This document shows positions 43,660 through 55,523 of a stretch of 64,000 nt of DNA, piece by piece. This DNA comes from an uncultured Acidobacteriota bacterium (lineage in GTDB: Bacteria > Acidobacteriota > UBA6911), in NCBI GenBank assembly GCA_963843575.1, contig CAWJKZ010000021.1:224001-288000 (forward strand), read 5' to 3'. Each line of letters opens with the position of its first letter. Positions within the stretch are counted from its first letter, which is position 1. The position numbers and the translations under genes are program-made. The notes beneath the pieces are model-generated. The model did not search any database and was not told the DNA's origin. It worked only from the letters and a program-made list of their open reading frames with translations.

Positions 43660-44664
43660 ATGCGATGTGCGGTTCTGGTTCTCTTGATGGCGGTCGGCGG
43701 GCAGGCGCAGACGGTCAAAATACTCGTGGGCAACGACGACCCTGTGCTCCTGCAGGAGTTTCGGACCGCCACCCCGGCGGTGCGGATCGTGCCGGTCACG
43801 GCGGAAAACGTCATGCGGGAAATCATCGACGCCGACGCCTTCATCGGAGACATCACGCCCGAGCAGGTCCGCGCCGGCAAGAAACTCCGCTGGGTGCAAA
43901 CCATGAGTGCGGGGGTCGAGCGGGTCCTGCACCGTTCAGGCGGCAACGACCTGCGCGACAGCGCCATCGTCCTCACAAACAACCAGATCGTGCAGGGGCC
44001 GGAGATCGCCGATCACGCCATGGCGCTGCTGCTCACGCTCTCGCGCGGCATCCCCGAGTTCCTGGCCGACAAGCAGCGTGAAGACTGGAGGCCCCGGCCC
44101 TATTCCGGCATCGAGCTCAACGGCCGCACGGCGCTCGTGATAGGGGTCGGCGGGATAGGGACGCAGATCGCCTTCCGGGCTTGGGCGCACGGCATGACCG
44201 TGATCGGCGTAGACCCGGAGGACGTCCCCTACATGCCCGTGATCTCGCAGGTGGTCAAGCCGGATCAGCTCGACGCGTTCCTTCCCCAGGCCGACGTGGT
44301 CTTCGTGTCGGCCCCGCACACCCCGTCGAGCGAAAAGATGCTTGGCCCGAGGCAATTCGAGGCCATGAAGAAGGGTGCCTACTTCATTGCGGTGAGCCGC
44401 GGCTCGCTTTACGACCTCGACGCGCTGGCGACGGCCCTCCAGACCCAGCGGCTGGCGGGCGCCGGAGTCGATGTGACCAATCCCGAGCCGCTGCCGAAGG
44501 GCCACCCCCTCTGGAAGTGCGACAACGCCATCATCACGCCGCACATCGCCGGGAGATCCGACAAGGACCGCGCGCGCATGGTCAACACCATCCGGGAAAA
44601 CATCCGCCGCTTTGTCGAGGGGAAGCCGCTCATCAACGTAGTCGACAAGCAGAAAGGGTACTGA
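43660..44664 (+). CDS. D-2-hydroxyacid dehydrogenase with an apparent signal peptide
   Basis: GVGGIG, catalytic VSRG / DVTNPEPL / TPHIAG. Hydrophobic N-terminus ending GQA. Confidence 0.9.
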   Translation: MRCAVLVLLMAVGGQAQTVKILVGNDDPVLLQEFRTATPAVRIVPVTAENVMREIIDADAFIGDITPEQVRAGKKLRWVQTMSAGVERVLHRSGGNDLRDSAIVLTNNQIVQGPEIADHAMALLLTLSRGIPEFLADKQREDWRPRPYSGIELNGRTALVIGVGGIGTQIAFRAWAHGMTVIGVDPEDVPYMPVISQVVKPDQLDAFLPQADVVFVSAPHTPSSEKMLGPRQFEAMKKGAYFIAVSRGSLYDLDALATALQTQRLAGAGVDVTNPEPLPKGHPLWKCDNAIITPHIAGRSDKDRARMVNTIRENIRRFVEGKPLINVVDKQKGY

Positions 44665-44668
44665 AGCA

Positions 44669-44690
44669 GGGGCGGGCTGCAGACCGCCCC
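44669..44690. terminator. Hairpin between convergent genes
   Basis: GGGGCGG-gctgcaga-CCGCCCC. Confidence 0.45.
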
Positions 44691-44740
44691 CGCCTTGTAC
44701 CTCCCGATCAGAGTTCCTACAAACCCGCGCCGGCCAGGGC

Positions 44741-47038
44741 TCAGAACCTGTACGTCAGGTTCGCGAACACATTGCGCCCGGGCTCGAAAACCCGCACGCC
44801 CGAACGGAATGGATCCCGCTGATACGACAGGTGCTCCCGGAAGAGCCTGTCGAACACATTGTTCAGCCCGACCGTGAGGCGAAACGCCTTCAGGGAGGTC
44901 CCGACCCGGATATTGGCCAGCCCGTACCCTGCGGTGGCTTCCTCCCGCATGTCCGTGTCGATGTTGCGCTGGGCGCCGGCCAGGACGCCCTCGACCTCGG
45001 CGGAAAAGCGTCCGTTGTCGAACCGCAGCCCGGAGCGTGTGGTCAGGGGCGGCATCTCGGCGAGGTTTTTGGAGAAGATGTTCCGCCCGGGTACCGGGTC
45101 CTGGATGCCACGCGTATAGGAAAGCGAGTTCGAGAAAAACACCCGGGACGTGATCGAATAAACCGCCTGCACCTCGGTCCCGTAAATCGTGGCATCGACG
45201 TTTTCGTATGACCGGGCGTTGGAGTTCATAATCCCGGCCACGGAATTCACCTTGACCGCCCGACGGACGGTGACGAAGTTGTCGATCCGGTTCAGATAGA
45301 ACGTCGAGCTGAGGAACAGCGCCTGCCGCCGCAGGGAAACGGACCCGTCCGTGCCGGTGTTGCGGCTGGGCAGCAGCCCAGGGTTGCCGACCCAATCCGA
45401 ACCGGCCCTGCGCAGCCCGAAGTACCGTTCCGTGGCGTCGGGCACCCGGACCGTGCTCCCCACCCCTCCGGAGAACTCGAGACCCCCCGGGGCCGAGTAC
45501 GTCAGCCGCGCCGCGCCCGAAGGGTAGACGTCGCTGGTAGACGTGGCACGCGTCGAGTTGTAGGCGTAGTAAAGATTCGTGTTGGCCTTGAGCGGATCCG
45601 CCTCGTGCTGGGTCCGATCCACGCGGCCGCCGAACTCCAGCTTGAGGCGGTCGGTCAGGGGCCTGTGGTACTCGGCATAAGCGCCGAACGACACGGCGGT
45701 GACGTCGGGGATGGAGGACTGCGACATGTATCCCATCCCCGCCATCTGGGTGGAGGCATCCCAGTACCGGCTGAAGGCTTCGAAGCCGAGCGTCAGGTTG
45801 TTCATCCCGGCCTCGAGCTTGCCGCCGAAGGTCCTGGTGACGGCAAACGTCCCCATACTGTAGTCCCGCGCCATTTTGTAGGAAGACGTCCTGTACGCGT
45901 CGGTCATCCAGTGACGCACGCCGGTGAAGTATCCGTGGACCCTGACGGAGTCGACCGGGCCTGCCATACGGTCGACCTGGTACCCGAAGCTGACCCGGTC
46001 GGTGTTGTCGTAGAGGGCGTCCATCTGCAGATAGGGGTACAGGACGCCGTCGGCCTCCTGGCGGGTGTACGCCAGTTGCAGCAGTTGATTGGCCGCCGGG
46101 GAGAACGAAATGCCGGCCCACGCGGTACCGATCTGGAATGCGGGGTTCTCCTGGGCTTCGGGCCGGTAGTTGCCATAGCGCGTGAAGAGATTCCCCGAGC
46201 CGTCGCTATACGGGTCGGAGCGGCGATACGAGTAGCCACCCAGGACCGAAAACCGGTCTCCGGCAAAGGAGGCGGTCGCCGAGGGATTCACGAAACCGTA
46301 GGCGCCGGCCGCGAGGTTGCCGGTGGCCCGGAAACCCTTCTCGGGCCTCCGGGTCACGATATTGACCACGCCGCCGAGGCTGCCGCTGTTTTTCACGTCG
46401 AACGGCCCCTTGCCCACCTCGATTCGATCCACCTCGGCGAAGTCGACGTGAAAGGCGGGGGGATCCATGTGATTGGGGCAGGCGCCGTAGACGCGCTGGC
46501 CGTCGATCAGCACATTCAGGTCCTTGCTCTGGAAGCCGCGCAAGACCACGTCGTTGGCGATCCCGCCCTTGCGGATTTTCGAGATGCCGTTGGTTTCCGC
46601 CAGCGCCTCCCCGACGTCGCGCGCCGGGCTCTCGCGTGTCTTCGATGCCTCGAGGCTGTCGCGCGGCGCGGTTCCCACGACCGTGACCATCTCCCTGATG
46701 GTGGCGATCTCGAGCCTCACGTCAAAGGTCCGGGCCTCCCCGGCCGAGACGCGGACGCGGCCGGCCTGGGCAGGCTCGAATCCCTCCAGCTCTGCGGCGA
46801 CTTCGTATTCCCCCGCAGGAACGCCCGGCACGCGATAGAGTCCGCGCGTGCCCGAGACGGCCAGCCACACCTTCCCCGTGTCCAGGTTGCGCAGGCTGAC
46901 ACGGGCCCCGGGCAGCCCCGTCTGGTTTGGCCCGAGCACGAGGCCTGCTATTTCGGCCGGGGGTGGCAGCGCCCCGGCGGGTTCCTGCAATCCGAACGTC
47001 ACGATGAGAACGAACAAGATACAGCATCGAATAACCAT
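44741..47038 (-). CDS. TonB-dependent copper receptor (OprC-like) with an N-terminal carboxypeptidase-regulatory-like domain
   Basis: Plug motif GACPNHMDPP (the OprC CxxxM signature), barrel HWM, Met-rich loops, terminal YRF. Confidence 0.88.
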   Translation of the reverse strand: MVIRCCILFVLIVTFGLQEPAGALPPPAEIAGLVLGPNQTGLPGARVSLRNLDTGKVWLAVSGTRGLYRVPGVPAGEYEVAAELEGFEPAQAGRVRVSAGEARTFDVRLEIATIREMVTVVGTAPRDSLEASKTRESPARDVGEALAETNGISKIRKGGIANDVVLRGFQSKDLNVLIDGQRVYGACPNHMDPPAFHVDFAEVDRIEVGKGPFDVKNSGSLGGVVNIVTRRPEKGFRATGNLAAGAYGFVNPSATASFAGDRFSVLGGYSYRRSDPYSDGSGNLFTRYGNYRPEAQENPAFQIGTAWAGISFSPAANQLLQLAYTRQEADGVLYPYLQMDALYDNTDRVSFGYQVDRMAGPVDSVRVHGYFTGVRHWMTDAYRTSSYKMARDYSMGTFAVTRTFGGKLEAGMNNLTLGFEAFSRYWDASTQMAGMGYMSQSSIPDVTAVSFGAYAEYHRPLTDRLKLEFGGRVDRTQHEADPLKANTNLYYAYNSTRATSTSDVYPSGAARLTYSAPGGLEFSGGVGSTVRVPDATERYFGLRRAGSDWVGNPGLLPSRNTGTDGSVSLRRQALFLSSTFYLNRIDNFVTVRRAVKVNSVAGIMNSNARSYENVDATIYGTEVQAVYSITSRVFFSNSLSYTRGIQDPVPGRNIFSKNLAEMPPLTTRSGLRFDNGRFSAEVEGVLAGAQRNIDTDMREEATAGYGLANIRVGTSLKAFRLTVGLNNVFDRLFREHLSYQRDPFRSGVRVFEPGRNVFANLTYRF

Positions 47039-47152
47039 GGCGGTCCCCTCGCGTTCCTCGGGCGCGCGCCTGGGAGAGCCTGCGCGAGGCTCCGGGGCGG
47101 CAACCGATCAAGCGCATTTGCGGATTCAGCTCGCTGAACTGCGGGGACCGCC
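47039..47152 (-). promoter_or_regulatory. Anti-Shine-Dalgarno stem sequestering the receptor RBS
   Basis: 47039-47048 GGCGGTCCCC and 47143-47152 GGGGACCGCC are exact reverse complements. Pairing extends with bulges (GC, GTTC/GAAC). Confidence 0.7.
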
Positions 47153-47563
47153 TTTCGGCGGCGGACTCGGGACCGAGAGATCGACGGTCAGGCAGGAACA
47201 TGCCAGCGGATGTAAATTGGCCACGGGGCGGAGACTGATGGACAACTCGTCTGGCCGGGGGAGGGTCGCAACCTCCAGCGCCGGGACGGACCGCGAGGCC
47301 GCCTCCTTCGAGGAGAGGCCGCAGTCGCAGGAGGCGCCTTCGTTCGGGACGCAATGATGCACGCCGTTTTCATCCAGGTAGCACCTGGCGGTGCAGCAGC
47401 TCGCTTCCGCACATCCGACAGTCATTGCGTGCGGGTCCGCGGCGCGCGACGGTTTGAGCGCTCCCAGGAGCGGGAAGCCGACCCAGCCCGCTGCGTACAG
47501 GACGAGCGCCGTGAGCGCCAGGGGGCCTGGGGTCGTGCCCGATTGTCGGCGGAAGACCATCAT
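47126..47563 (-). CDS. Cys-rich leader protein of DUF2946/CruR-like architecture, ending in PSPPPK
   Basis: AAGGA RBS; N-terminal TM segment; CAEASCCTARC..HHC..CDC; C-terminal Pro motif; directly upstream of the Cu receptor. Confidence 0.75.
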   Translation of the reverse strand: MMVFRRQSGTTPGPLALTALVLYAAGWVGFPLLGALKPSRAADPHAMTVGCAEASCCTARCYLDENGVHHCVPNEGASCDCGLSSKEAASRSVPALEVATLPRPDELSISLRPVANLHPLACSCLTVDLSVPSPPPKGGPRSSAS

Positions 47564-47626
47564 CGTTGGTTCCTTAACCTCACTTCGAATCTAGCCGCAT
47601 TGTCGATGAAAAGCAATCGGAGGGAA

Positions 47627-47647
47627 TACCCAAATCGTATATGGGTA
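47627..47647. promoter_or_regulatory. Candidate operator palindrome
   Basis: TACCCA-N9-TGGGTA in the AT-rich region upstream of the leader ORF. Confidence 0.35.
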
Positions 47648-47676
47648 AAAACACCCAAATTAAACAAGGTGGACAA

Positions 47677-47780
47677 GTGGGTCCGGGCTTCAGCCCGGAC
47701 GTCTTTTGAGCTGATCTATATAGCGACGGGCGCACGTTATAGCGACCGCAAACAGCGTCCGGGTTGAAGCCCGGACCCAC
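47677..47780. repeat. REP family A inverted doublet (REPIN-like)
   Basis: GTGG+GTCCGGGC-TTCA-GCCCGGAC ... GTCCGGGT-TGAA-GCCCGGAC+CCAC. Confidence 0.85.
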
Positions 47781-47887
47781 TTCTTTCTTATATCTGGCTT
47801 AGGTAGTTAAAAATAACGACAAACGCTCGCATTTGCTGTGGCGATGTCATACAGTCGGTCCAAGAACCGGAGGAATGAAAGCTCATC

Positions 47888-48976
47888 ATGCGCAGACGAC
47901 ATTTCATCTCCACCTCACTGATCGCGCCCGCGGTGGTGCGGGCGGGTATCGCCTCGCGGCGCAGCGCACCGGGGGCCACCCGTATGAAACTCGGCTGCCA
48001 AAGCGGCCCGCAAACAGACGAGCGGCTGGAGTTTTTCGCGCGCCACGGAGTCGATGCGATCTGCGGAAGCCCGCCGGCCCGGGCGGATGGGCTCATCTGG
48101 ACTGCCGATGATCTGGCCCAGCTGCGGGAGCGGGTCGAAAAGCACGGCATGACGCTCGACATGATCGCGCCGCCGTTTCTGGAGTCCACCCACGTCGACC
48201 GGACGCAGCGCCCGGCGATCATGCTGGGCCGGAGCCCGGACCGCGACCGGGACGTCGAGAATATCCAGGCGCTCATCCGCAACTGTGCGAAGGCCGGAAT
48301 CCCCGCGATCAAGTACAATCTGAACCTGCTCGGGGTGCCGCGCACCAAGCCGACGCGGGGCAGAGGAGGATCGTCGCTGAGCACCTGGCGGCTCGCGGAG
48401 GCGGGCGATCGTGCCACCCGGACGACCAGCGCAGGCCGGGTCACGGAAGACGTCTACTGGGAACGAATCACCTGGTTTCTGCAACGCGTCGTCCCCGTTG
48501 CCGCCGAGTACCGGGTCCGGATGGCCTGTCACCCGCACGACCCGGGGCTGCCGCCGGGATTCGAAGGAGTGGACTGCGTGCTCGGGACCGTGGACGGCCT
48601 GAAGAAGTTCGTGGACATCGAGGCGAGCCCATACCACGGCCTGAACTTCTGCCAGGGAACGGTCAGCGAGATGCTGCAGGAGCCGTCGCGCGAGATTAAC
48701 GACGTGATCCGCTATTTCGGGGAGCGCCGGAAGATCTTCAATGTCCACTTCCGGAACATCCGCGGCCACCGCGACAGTTTCCAGGAGACGTTCCCCGACG
48801 AGGGGGATGTGGACATGCTCAAGGCGCTCCTCGCGTACCGGGATACCGGTTATGAATTCATGCTGATGCCCGATCACGTGCCCCGCCACGACGGCGACCG
48901 GGACGGCCTCCAGGCATTTGCGTTCTGCTACGGCTATATCCGCGCCTTGCTCCAGGCTGTTTCCGAGATGGGTTGA
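47888..48976 (+). CDS. uxuA: Mannonate dehydratase (UxuA) family protein with a Tat-like leader
   Basis: HPHDP, SPYHGLNFCQG, HFRN, FPDEGDVDM, MPDHVP. MRRRHF leader. Substrate not certain. Confidence 0.8.
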   Translation: MRRRHFISTSLIAPAVVRAGIASRRSAPGATRMKLGCQSGPQTDERLEFFARHGVDAICGSPPARADGLIWTADDLAQLRERVEKHGMTLDMIAPPFLESTHVDRTQRPAIMLGRSPDRDRDVENIQALIRNCAKAGIPAIKYNLNLLGVPRTKPTRGRGGSSLSTWRLAEAGDRATRTTSAGRVTEDVYWERITWFLQRVVPVAAEYRVRMACHPHDPGLPPGFEGVDCVLGTVDGLKKFVDIEASPYHGLNFCQGTVSEMLQEPSREINDVIRYFGERRKIFNVHFRNIRGHRDSFQETFPDEGDVDMLKALLAYRDTGYEFMLMPDHVPRHDGDRDGLQAFAFCYGYIRALLQAVSEMG

Positions 48977-55475: not shown

Positions 55476-55523
55476 AAGTGGGTCCGGGCTTCAGCCCGGA
55501 CGCTGTTTGCGGGCGCTATATAG
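55476..55523. repeat. REP family A half element
   Basis: AAGTGGGTCCGGGCTTCAGCCCGGACGCTGTTTGCGGGCGCTATA, the reverse complement of the right half of the 47677 doublet, including spacer. Confidence 0.85.

Follow-up and report, generated by a model that had tools for sequence, protein, structure and literature searches.

Copper-sensing arrest-peptide leaders are a very recent class of regulators, exemplified by CruR (2022) and CutF (2023-2025), in which an extracytoplasmic metal is read through the nascent chain. CruR (Bp2923) of Bordetella pertussis is described as a 145-residue DUF2946 protein on which a stall at a RAPP motif keeps Rho away, and copper sensed through a CXXC motif relieves that stall and shuts off the TonB receptor BfrG (PMC9426467). 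The same report presents this regulation as EF-P independent, with a 162-nucleotide (nt) spacer, a Rho-dependent output and a 'C>G bubble' mapped as the Rho-utilisation (rut) site, and it names OprC-type (TIGR01778) receptors among the neighbours of cruR homologues; the receptor under CruR control, CrtA/BfrG, is placed in a different receptor cluster from OprC (PMC12914433). CutF of Rhodobacter capsulatus is reported to combine a Sec signal with a CxxxC motif and a C-terminal GPPPRL 45 residues apart, and its copper-induced, EF-P-sensitive stall to melt a stem-loop over the cutO ribosome-binding site (PMC9973294; 10.1101/2025.02.05.636593). According to the current CutF model, the stall is relieved when a disulfide forms, and copper blocks this relief (10.1101/2025.02.05.636593). 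CruR and CutF respond to copper in opposite directions. Here we describe a 145-amino-acid (aa) leader gene, followed by an OprC-like TonB-dependent receptor gene, in a 64,000-nt stretch of DNA from an uncultured Acidobacteriota bacterium (hereafter the window), and we find that this gene is probably a cis-acting arrest leader for the receptor, of CruR/CutF-like build and from a sequence family that looks unrelated.

The motif spacing of 45 residues is given as fixed in both described systems (PMC9426467; PMC9973294). A wider set of 'CutF-like' proteins was defined by four features: fewer than 150 aa, PP among the final 15 residues, a signal peptide, and a neighbouring gene on the same strand no more than 1000 nt away. 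As published, it comprises 5,334 proteins in 29 sequence clusters, drawn mainly from Pseudomonadota and Bacteroidota; TonB-like genes rank second in frequency among the neighbours, and members with other ligand sets are linked to nickel or cobalt genes (PMC9973294). RAPP/RGPP leaders have in turn been extended to TonB receptors across Gram-negative phyla (2025 EMBO J, PMC12992588).

The leader gene of the window (47126-47563, including the stop codon; this and all other features of the locus lie on the minus strand) starts with an ATG that has AAGGA, a plausible ribosome-binding site, on its 5' side, and its product begins MMVFRRQSGTTPGPLALTALVLYAAGWVGFPLLGALKPSRAADPHAMTVGCAEASCCTARCYLDENGVHHCVPNEGASCDCGLSS and ends VPSPPPKGGPRSSAS. 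A hydrophobic signal-anchor or signal-peptide segment (codons 14-36, 47456-47524; hydrophobic stretch LALTALVLYAAGWVGFPLLGAL) is preceded by two arginines, and the highest-scoring 19-residue Kyte-Doolittle window in it reaches 1.89; segments of this kind are present in 22 of 22 leaders, with best-window scores of 1.46-2.51. This is followed by a candidate metal-binding module, C51-x4-C56C57-x3-C61-x7-H69H70C71-x7-C79-x-C81 (codons 51-81, 47321-47413), which contains a CxxxC motif (C57..C61). Comparison of homologues then defines a spacer of variable sequence, fixed length and C-rich mRNA (codons 82-133, 47165-47320), which leads to CCG CCG CCG (47156-47164), the codons of Pro134-Pro136 within VPSPPPK and the proposed ribosome arrest site. 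An earlier, sequence-only reading of this DNA had described just such a 145-aa open reading frame (ORF), with a transmembrane or signal segment, the cluster CAEASCCTARC..HHC..CDC, a spacer and CCG CCG CCG at 47164-47156, and all of these are present. The same reading called the PSPPPK motif terminal; the PPP is there, but it is near-terminal and not strictly terminal, since nine residues intervene before the stop codon. Between the end of the stop codon (47126) and the receptor ATG (47038) lie the 87 nt that had been counted.

The leader has no Pfam or NCBIfam match at E<=1. An AlphaFold2 model of low overall confidence (mean predicted local distance difference test, pLDDT, 61.7; predicted template modelling score 0.26) shows a membrane helix at residues 14-29 (pLDDT about 85), a low-confidence small beta-hairpin (57-63/69-73) that carries Cys/His residues, and a spacer modelled as disordered, with pLDDT <50 at residues 84-103. 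From the sequence, we infer a Cys/His-rich protein that is exported or anchored in the membrane and carries a C-terminal PPP. Set against the 'CutF-like' rules, it fits in its length (145 aa), in the position of its PPP, which ends 9 residues from the stop, and in its neighbour, an OprC-like receptor 87 nt downstream; as to the signal peptide, it has the hydrophobic 19-residue window after two arginines and the modelled helix described above.

Homologues of the leader show that it is a real and conserved gene of narrow distribution. When 5.8 billion proteins were searched through a word index, 92 candidates emerged, 17 of them homologues at E<=0.01 (126-170 aa, 42-63% identical over the aligned part). 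In a HMMER profile search of 1.84 billion representative proteins, 59 clusters passed E<=1e-3 and 23 passed E<=1e-30; it is on these 17 homologues and 59 cluster representatives that the gene's reality rests. The few named members of the 59 clusters are all labelled 'hypothetical protein', and some relatives exceed 150 aa as called, up to 211 aa, a length that depends on the choice of start codon. Among 401 Acidobacteriota genomes the family occurs in three, all within the window's own family, and within the order in 13 of 51 genomes and 4 of 11 genera; in these whole genomes it was found in this one acidobacterial family only. The window's genome holds one copy.

What is conserved in this family follows a simple pattern. 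In the alignment of the leader with its close relatives (18 sequences), C51, C56, C57, C61, H69, H70, C71, C79, C81 and P134-136 are invariant. In a wider alignment of 28 sequences, which includes a divergent clade of another genus, C51, C56, C57, C61, D64, G67, H69, H70, C71, P135 and P136 remain invariant and P134 and C79 nearly so, while C81, and with it the second CxC, is missing in part of the divergent clade. Between the module and the PPP, by contrast, almost none of the 50-odd residues is conserved, and yet their number is. Of 74 proteins pooled from both database searches, 66 carry HHC and PPP (the other 8 have variant or truncated motifs), and the HHC cysteine and the first proline of the PPP are 63 residues apart in 42 of the 66, 64 in 17, 62 in 4, and 61, 65 and 66 in one protein each, a range of 61-66. 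Among 35 intact distinct sequences, counted with one frameshifted copy and one fragment set aside, this distance is 63 in 29 and 64 in 6. It is far less variable than the interval between the membrane segment and the first cysteine, for which values of 2 to 24 residues occur. The PPP itself stands 0-11 residues from the stop codon in all 66 proteins, and 1-2 residues from it in 42; it is followed by R in 39 and K in 21 and preceded by P-T in 33, which yields the consensus ending [VI]-P-T-P-P-P-[RK]. Conservation of the Cys cluster, the PPP and their spacing, which the sequence-only reading had proposed as a check, is thus seen across the 28 sequences and the 66 proteins. In addition, a sister family with another Cys pattern (CxCPMC..HHCxCC..CxC) shares both the VPTPPP[RK] ending and the spacing. 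A scan of genome contigs with a back-translated DNA pattern for this sister family returned 28 stretches, none of them a true relative.

The receptor (44741-47038, 765 aa) has a signal peptide, a CarboxypepD_reg domain, a Plug domain and a barrel of the 22-strand family, with Pfam matches to PF13620, PF07715 and PF00593. Its best solved relative is OprC of Pseudomonas aeruginosa (6FOK, E 2.2e-31, residues 135-764), and the two share the Plug domain, the barrel and the aligned positions of the CxxxM and HxM motifs; the receptor of the window differs by its extra N-terminal CarboxypepD_reg domain. In fact, the CPNHMD and HWM copper motifs first noticed from the sequence align with OprC throughout: GACPNHMD with GACPNRMD, placing candidate copper-site codons at Cys187 and Met191 (46466-46480), and RHWM with DHIM, placing them at His376 and Met378 (45905-45913). 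We take these four residues, CxxxM plus HxM, to be the copper ligands of OprC. The best NCBIfam model for the receptor is TIGR01778 (TonB-copper), and because its score of 197.5 bits is well under the equivalog cut-off of 472.45 bits, we call the receptor OprC-like and not an OprC orthologue by this model.

The linkage of leader and receptor, too, holds beyond the window, as the sequence-only reading had suggested be checked. The 22 loci compared are that of the window together with others from genomes and from metagenome contigs; L001, L002 and L003 coincide with L008, L005 and L007. A CarboxypepD_reg-type TonB receptor follows the leader on the same strand in 21 of the 22, after a spacer of 32-160 nt, and in every locus the leader is the first gene, before the copper gene. 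GACPNHMD is found in 15 of 15 downstream receptors whose contig reaches the site and HWM in 13 of 13; six other receptors are cut off earlier and are classed from their signal peptide and CarboxypepD_reg-like N-terminus only. In the window, the pair forms an isolated two-gene minus-strand unit; the flanking plus-strand genes encode a 2-hydroxyacid dehydrogenase, a DUF362 protein and a UxuA-like enzyme and have no copper link.

The exception lies in G401, the only other genome of the window's genus, where the genes after a leader 53% identical to that of the window encode a Tat-signal multicopper oxidase and a di-haem CCP/MauG-type peroxidase. Searches with these queries brought up no close receptor copy in G401 and no oxidase copy in the window's genome, both genomes being incomplete (81% and 88%). 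The oxidase gene (L001 4442-5994) is split into two overlapping frames of 223 aa and 311 aa, either by an assembly frameshift or as a real pseudogene. Gly/Met-rich repeats follow its Tat signal, and similar GGMGGG repeats occur in the adjacent di-haem CCP/MauG protein.

A profile search of the 401 Acidobacteriota genomes with the sister-family alignment gave one further divergent leader, L073 (about 1500-1902, in genome G009 of another acidobacterial family), a small Cys/His/Met-rich ORF (..CAMSDCCRSGHCAMCAKGMCGM..) directly upstream of a CarboxypepD_reg-type TonB receptor. This ORF ends EPPRS and suggests, for leaders of this proline-terminated metal-ligand kind before such receptors, a greater diversity in Acidobacteriota than is seen in the families found here.

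In comparisons with DUF2946 (PF11162, gathering score 23.7 bits), which the literature names as the CruR/CutF family, the leader is not detectable as a member. The DUF2946 hidden Markov model matches none of 18 family members at E<=10, none of 19 further relatives at E<=1, and nothing in the whole genome of the window at E<=1. The model does work in this phylum: 10 of the 401 Acidobacteriota genomes match, 7 of them above the cut-off and none in the window's family. Within the phylum, the two leader types therefore seem to be taxonomic substitutes for one another. In other acidobacterial families (L032-L040), DUF2946 proteins of the canonical kind, with CxxC and with R[AG]PP at the C-terminus, were observed. 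Profile-profile comparison (hhalign) of the 18-sequence alignment with eight acidobacterial DUF2946 proteins aligned 24 columns, all of them in the membrane segment, with a probability of 37%. In a protein-language-model search, DUF6769 and DUF2946/CzcI clusters came up at 0.92, the latter with 93 shared features, a kind of match that often arises by chance and serves as a lead only. The description of the leader as an 'analogue, not member' of the CruR family is therefore the right wording, since both the DUF2946 model and the profile-profile comparisons are negative.

The likeness to CruR is one of build. Both proteins have about 145 aa and are encoded by the first gene before a TonB-dependent, copper-related receptor, and both have an N-terminal export signal (a putative one in the window leader), a Cys motif, a fixed-length spacer, Pro-Pro near the stop and a C-rich 3' part of the gene. 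In contrast to the CXXC and R-A/G-P-P motifs about 45 residues apart, the window leader has no CXXC and has PPP[KR] for RAPP; its core, C-x4-CC-x3-C-x7-HHC(-x7-CxC), is larger than the Cys motif of CruR, in line with the larger Cys sensor that had been proposed, and the PPP[KR] follows 63-64 residues after the HHC cysteine. CutF is closer in its ending, since its PPP is followed by R near the stop (GPPPRL; TPPPR/K here), and also in its CxxxC, its short spacer, its Sec-type N-terminus (putative in the window leader), and an mRNA stem (predicted in the window) that shields the next Shine-Dalgarno sequence until a stalled ribosome melts it. Moreover, the gene downstream of CutF is a multicopper oxidase, as behind the leader of G401. 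Nevertheless, the Cys/His module of the window family is another and larger one, and its spacing of 63-64 rather than 45 residues would place it outside the SecY vestibule rather than within. The usual target in this family is an importer, and for that reason a copper response opposite to that of CutF is expected.

The sequence-only reading had also presented the PPP-type variant as one without a known description. This part does not stand: CutF is already published as a PPP-type, EF-P-dependent copper-sensing leader (PMC9973294; 10.1101/2025.02.05.636593) and TonB-like genes are frequent 'CutF-like' neighbours, so that 'PPP instead of RAPP' is not new in itself. What is new here is the distinct sequence family, the larger Cys/His module, the 63-64-residue ruler and the use before both an OprC-like importer and an oxidase, together, possibly, with proline codons that double as an anti-Shine-Dalgarno element. 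Full-text literature searches returned no paper on this leader family, the 29 'CutF-like' cluster lists lying outside that comparison. For the rest, the comparative evidence supports the earlier interpretation in part, and the larger part of it.

At the RNA level, the leader and the receptor may be joined by base pairing. One codon after the PPP begin ten bases, GGCGGUCCCC (47143-47152), that are an exact complement of GGGGACCGCC (47048-47039) in the Shine-Dalgarno region just before the receptor ATG, and the minimum-free-energy fold pairs 47143-47152 with 47039-47048. Between leader and receptor lies the 87-nt intergenic region (47039-47125), which holds an internal hairpin (GGAGCCU..AGGCUCC) and the receptor's Shine-Dalgarno region, GAGGGGACCGCC (47039-47050). 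In local folds of 13 loci, 9 pair the Shine-Dalgarno sequence with the zone that a stalled ribosome would occupy at a probability >=0.5. Across the 22 loci, the share of Shine-Dalgarno pairing that goes to this zone averages 0.41, compared with 0.12 in 25 mononucleotide shuffles per locus, a weaker control than dinucleotide-preserving shuffles; the share lies above the shuffle mean in 19 of the 22, and in 7 at most one of the 25 shuffles reaches the real value. The choice of proline codons agrees with such pairing: CCU is enriched in the PPP, at 19 of 65 codons compared with 103 of 684 proline codons elsewhere in these loci (Fisher p 0.007), and CCUCC occurs in or beside the PPP codons in 14 of the 22 loci. 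In the window itself the PPP is encoded by CCG CCG CCG and the predicted pairing relies on the bases after the PPP instead.

In seven loci with spacers of about 150 nt, a consensus fold likewise joins the PPP region to the Shine-Dalgarno region, and 90% of the cells of this helix are paired, versus 30-50% when the partners are slid. The covariation score of this fold is 0.271 vs 0.199 shuffled, reached by 0 of 500, and five pairs show double changes. The spacers of L005, L007, L021, L022, L024, L025 and L026 also contain a (nearly) invariant block, TTC(C/T)GCGTCTG, within variable surroundings (columns 80-90 of the spacer alignment A4). This block partly pairs with the leader stop-codon region in the consensus fold and might be a protein-binding or pause site.

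Taken together, an invariant ligand module, a spacer fixed in length and free in sequence, an invariant near-terminal PPP, a leader that always comes first before a copper gene, and PPP codons that tend to pair with the next ribosome-binding site are the reasons for which we read the gene as an arrest leader; the same pattern would be difficult to account for in a mature protein. From this anatomy, conservation, spacing, linkage and predicted pairing we infer export, stalling, copper binding and polarity, and the steps would proceed as follows: (I) the leader is made first, and its N-terminal hydrophobic segment would bring the nascent chain to the Sec translocon; (II) the Cys/His module (residues 51-81) would emerge on the periplasmic side; (III) peptide-bond formation would slow at Pro134-136, because PPP is an intrinsic pause site; (IV) the ribosome on the PPP would cover the PPP codons and about 12-15 nt downstream, that is, GGCGGUCCCC in the window, and so block its pairing with the Shine-Dalgarno sequence; and (V) copper binding would fold the Cys/His module, and the resulting pull on the chain would shorten the pause, so that the leader is finished, the helix re-forms and receptor synthesis drops. 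Ribosome tunnel and membrane have been estimated at about 30 and 17 residues (PMC9973294). The core ligands, at 63-83 residues from the peptidyl-transferase centre, would lie beyond both, and the 63-64-residue distance would put the module core just outside ribosome and translocon.

In this proposed mechanism, the stall would be the ON state of the receptor, because the stalled ribosome keeps its ribosome-binding site open. For an importer the sensible polarity would be that copper releases the stall and uptake falls, by analogy with CruR. Since in the congener a leader of this family stands before a multicopper oxidase, the polarity of the response may differ between loci or be reversed. Similarly to SecM and the RAPP/RGPP arrest peptides, for which an exported nascent chain, a force-relieved arrest and exposure of a downstream ribosome-binding site by the stall are described (PMC12992588), the leader of the window would arrest as an exported chain and yield to a pulling force. 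Its motif, however, is a plain PPP and not RAPP, RGPP or RAGP, and the proposed force is metal-dependent folding and not the secretion machinery.

Several observations weigh against this reading. One leader (L015) has LPPK in place of PPP. The G401 leader, with a similar predicted pairing, stands before a multicopper oxidase, a detoxifying enzyme for which the opposite copper response is expected. The fold energy of the window's G+C-rich sequence is unremarkable relative to shuffles (z -0.75; +1.56 for the intergenic part alone), and total Shine-Dalgarno pairing is alike in real and shuffled sequences (0.70 vs 0.69 over the 22 loci), so only the choice of partner differs, and C-rich proline codons account for some of that difference. 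When 150 nt of upstream sequence are included, the favoured partner falls within -10 to +23 nt of the PPP in only 13 of the 22 loci, and pairing with the stalled-ribosome zone is absent in L017, L024 and L027. The codon test and the covariation test in the seven loci both draw on related, non-independent sequences, and the consensus structure was derived from the same seven related sequences on which it was scored. The leader family is not demonstrably homologous to DUF2946, and the organism is known only as a metagenome-assembled genome. A PPP alone is, moreover, normally rescued by EF-P. Finally, in a LepB fusion with the CutF proline motif, the stalled product is reported as not detectable (PMC9973294).

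With regard to EF-P, the window's genome has three matches to the EF-P domain (PF01132) on contigs C14 and C19, in frames of 199, 256 and 234 aa. These three genes are possible EfpL/YeiP-type paralogues, which could matter for polyproline-based regulation.

The arrest itself might also act through Rho, with the stalled ribosome protecting a Rho-utilisation site as in CruR and release of the stall leading to termination before the receptor. We consider this output unlikely. The last 100-150 nt of the leader do contain more C than G, with a skew of +0.1 to +0.37 in the seven loci profiled that peaks at or just before the PPP and turns negative in the intergenic region, a profile that resembles the 'C>G bubble' described for the cruR rut site (PMC9426467). 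This C-richness, however, follows in part from Pro, Ser and Ala codons. Spacer length points both ways: one subclade has spacers of about 150 nt, near the 162 nt of CruR, whereas many are short (32-87 nt), that of the window among them. The fold of the intergenic region in the window, no more stable than shuffles, is what a Rho output would allow, while the concentration of the predicted Shine-Dalgarno partner in the stalled-ribosome zone favours a helix that masks the Shine-Dalgarno sequence. We note that Rho output and helix masking are not mutually exclusive, and that Rho dependence is not readable from sequence.

It is quite improbable that the leader is an ordinary stable protein, that is, a small, membrane-anchored periplasmic copper-binding protein or chaperone without a regulatory role, whose proline-rich end serves as a protein contact. 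Such a protein would account for the predicted membrane helix, the Cys/His-rich module and the copper-protein neighbours, and copper-receptor operons are reported often to carry periplasmic copper chaperones (PMC9426467). It would not account for a spacer that is predicted to be disordered and is strict in length without conservation of sequence, for a PPP at most 11 residues from the stop in 66 of 66 proteins, for a leader that is always the first gene, 32-160 nt upstream, or for the same leader type heading two unrelated copper genes, a receptor and an oxidase. CutF itself is reported to undergo rapid degradation and to escape detection as a protein.

Least of all do we expect an arrest leader for another signal, in which the seven to nine Cys/His residues report disulfide capacity or zinc, cadmium or silver, or copper prolongs the stall in a CutF-like manner: disulfide-driven relief blocked by copper in the CutF model (10.1101/2025.02.05.636593), the 'CutF-like' proteins with other ligands tied to nickel or cobalt genes (PMC9973294) and the G401 multicopper-oxidase locus, which would fit copper-induced stalling, all lend it something, but every identified downstream gene encodes a copper protein (a CxxxM/HxM receptor or a multicopper oxidase), and copper would presumably switch OprC-type importers off, following the logic described for CruR (PMC9426467).

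Scans of the locus for other regulatory elements gave the following. The spacer between leader and receptor contains no sigma-70-like promoter and no terminator in a promoter/terminator scan, and an Rfam scan of 44500-48000 at E<=1 left leader and spacer without a match, the only hit being a spurious sub-threshold mir-1422 on an upstream repeat. A palindromic element of about 108 nt (47675-47782) lies between the leader start and the divergent uxuA-like gene, with two 34-nt arms that are 88% complementary and a GTCCGGGCTTCAGCCCGGAC hairpin within each arm; a half-copy is found at 55480-55503. Genome-wide, 115 BLAST matches to it correspond to about 50 separate copies, which are 90-96% identical and in some places arranged in tandem (e.g., contig C2 19818-20334 and C15 265404-265786), and it looks like a repetitive extragenic palindromic (REP) or miniature inverted-repeat transposable element (MITE). 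As a dispersed repeat found throughout the genome, it was rejected as an operator of the leader locus. We also rejected a ribosomally synthesized and post-translationally modified peptide or chalkophore precursor, given the two-gene unit, the lack of adjacent modifying enzymes, and the conservation of the whole architecture rather than of a core peptide. In one metatranscriptome run, a single 189-nt contig falls within the receptor gene (45739-45927, 1 mismatch), which is uninformative on regulation; the leader is uncovered in that run, and at most 0.14 of the sampled words were found in any sequencing run.

A bolder proposal, tentative and in our view doubtful as a whole, is that these leaders are an independently evolved, portable copper-sensing cassette, in which the PPP codons (of CCUCC type) or the bases next to them act as the anti-Shine-Dalgarno element, the 63-64-residue distance acts as the ruler, and importer and oxidase have been swapped within one genus. 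If true, the dwell time on the PPP would directly set how long the next ribosome-binding site stays open, and the 63-64-residue ruler, compared with 45 in CruR and CutF, would reflect a whole Cys/His mini-domain that folds on binding metal, outside the translocon and not in the SecY vestibule. The cassette would have moved between an OprC-like importer and a detoxifying oxidase, and this pair would offer a natural test of the same sensor under opposite physiological logic.

A second, sequence-unrelated family with the same architecture as CruR and CutF would show either convergent design or divergence beyond the reach of Pfam DUF2946. Its invariant residues, spacing, [VI]PTPPP[RK] ending and pairing of proline codons with the Shine-Dalgarno sequence provide comparative constraints for mechanistic models. 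In Acidobacteriota, a class of 'hypothetical proteins' is thereby flagged as probable regulatory leaders, and the OprC-like receptor of uncultured soil and sediment members of the phylum would be linked to copper control.

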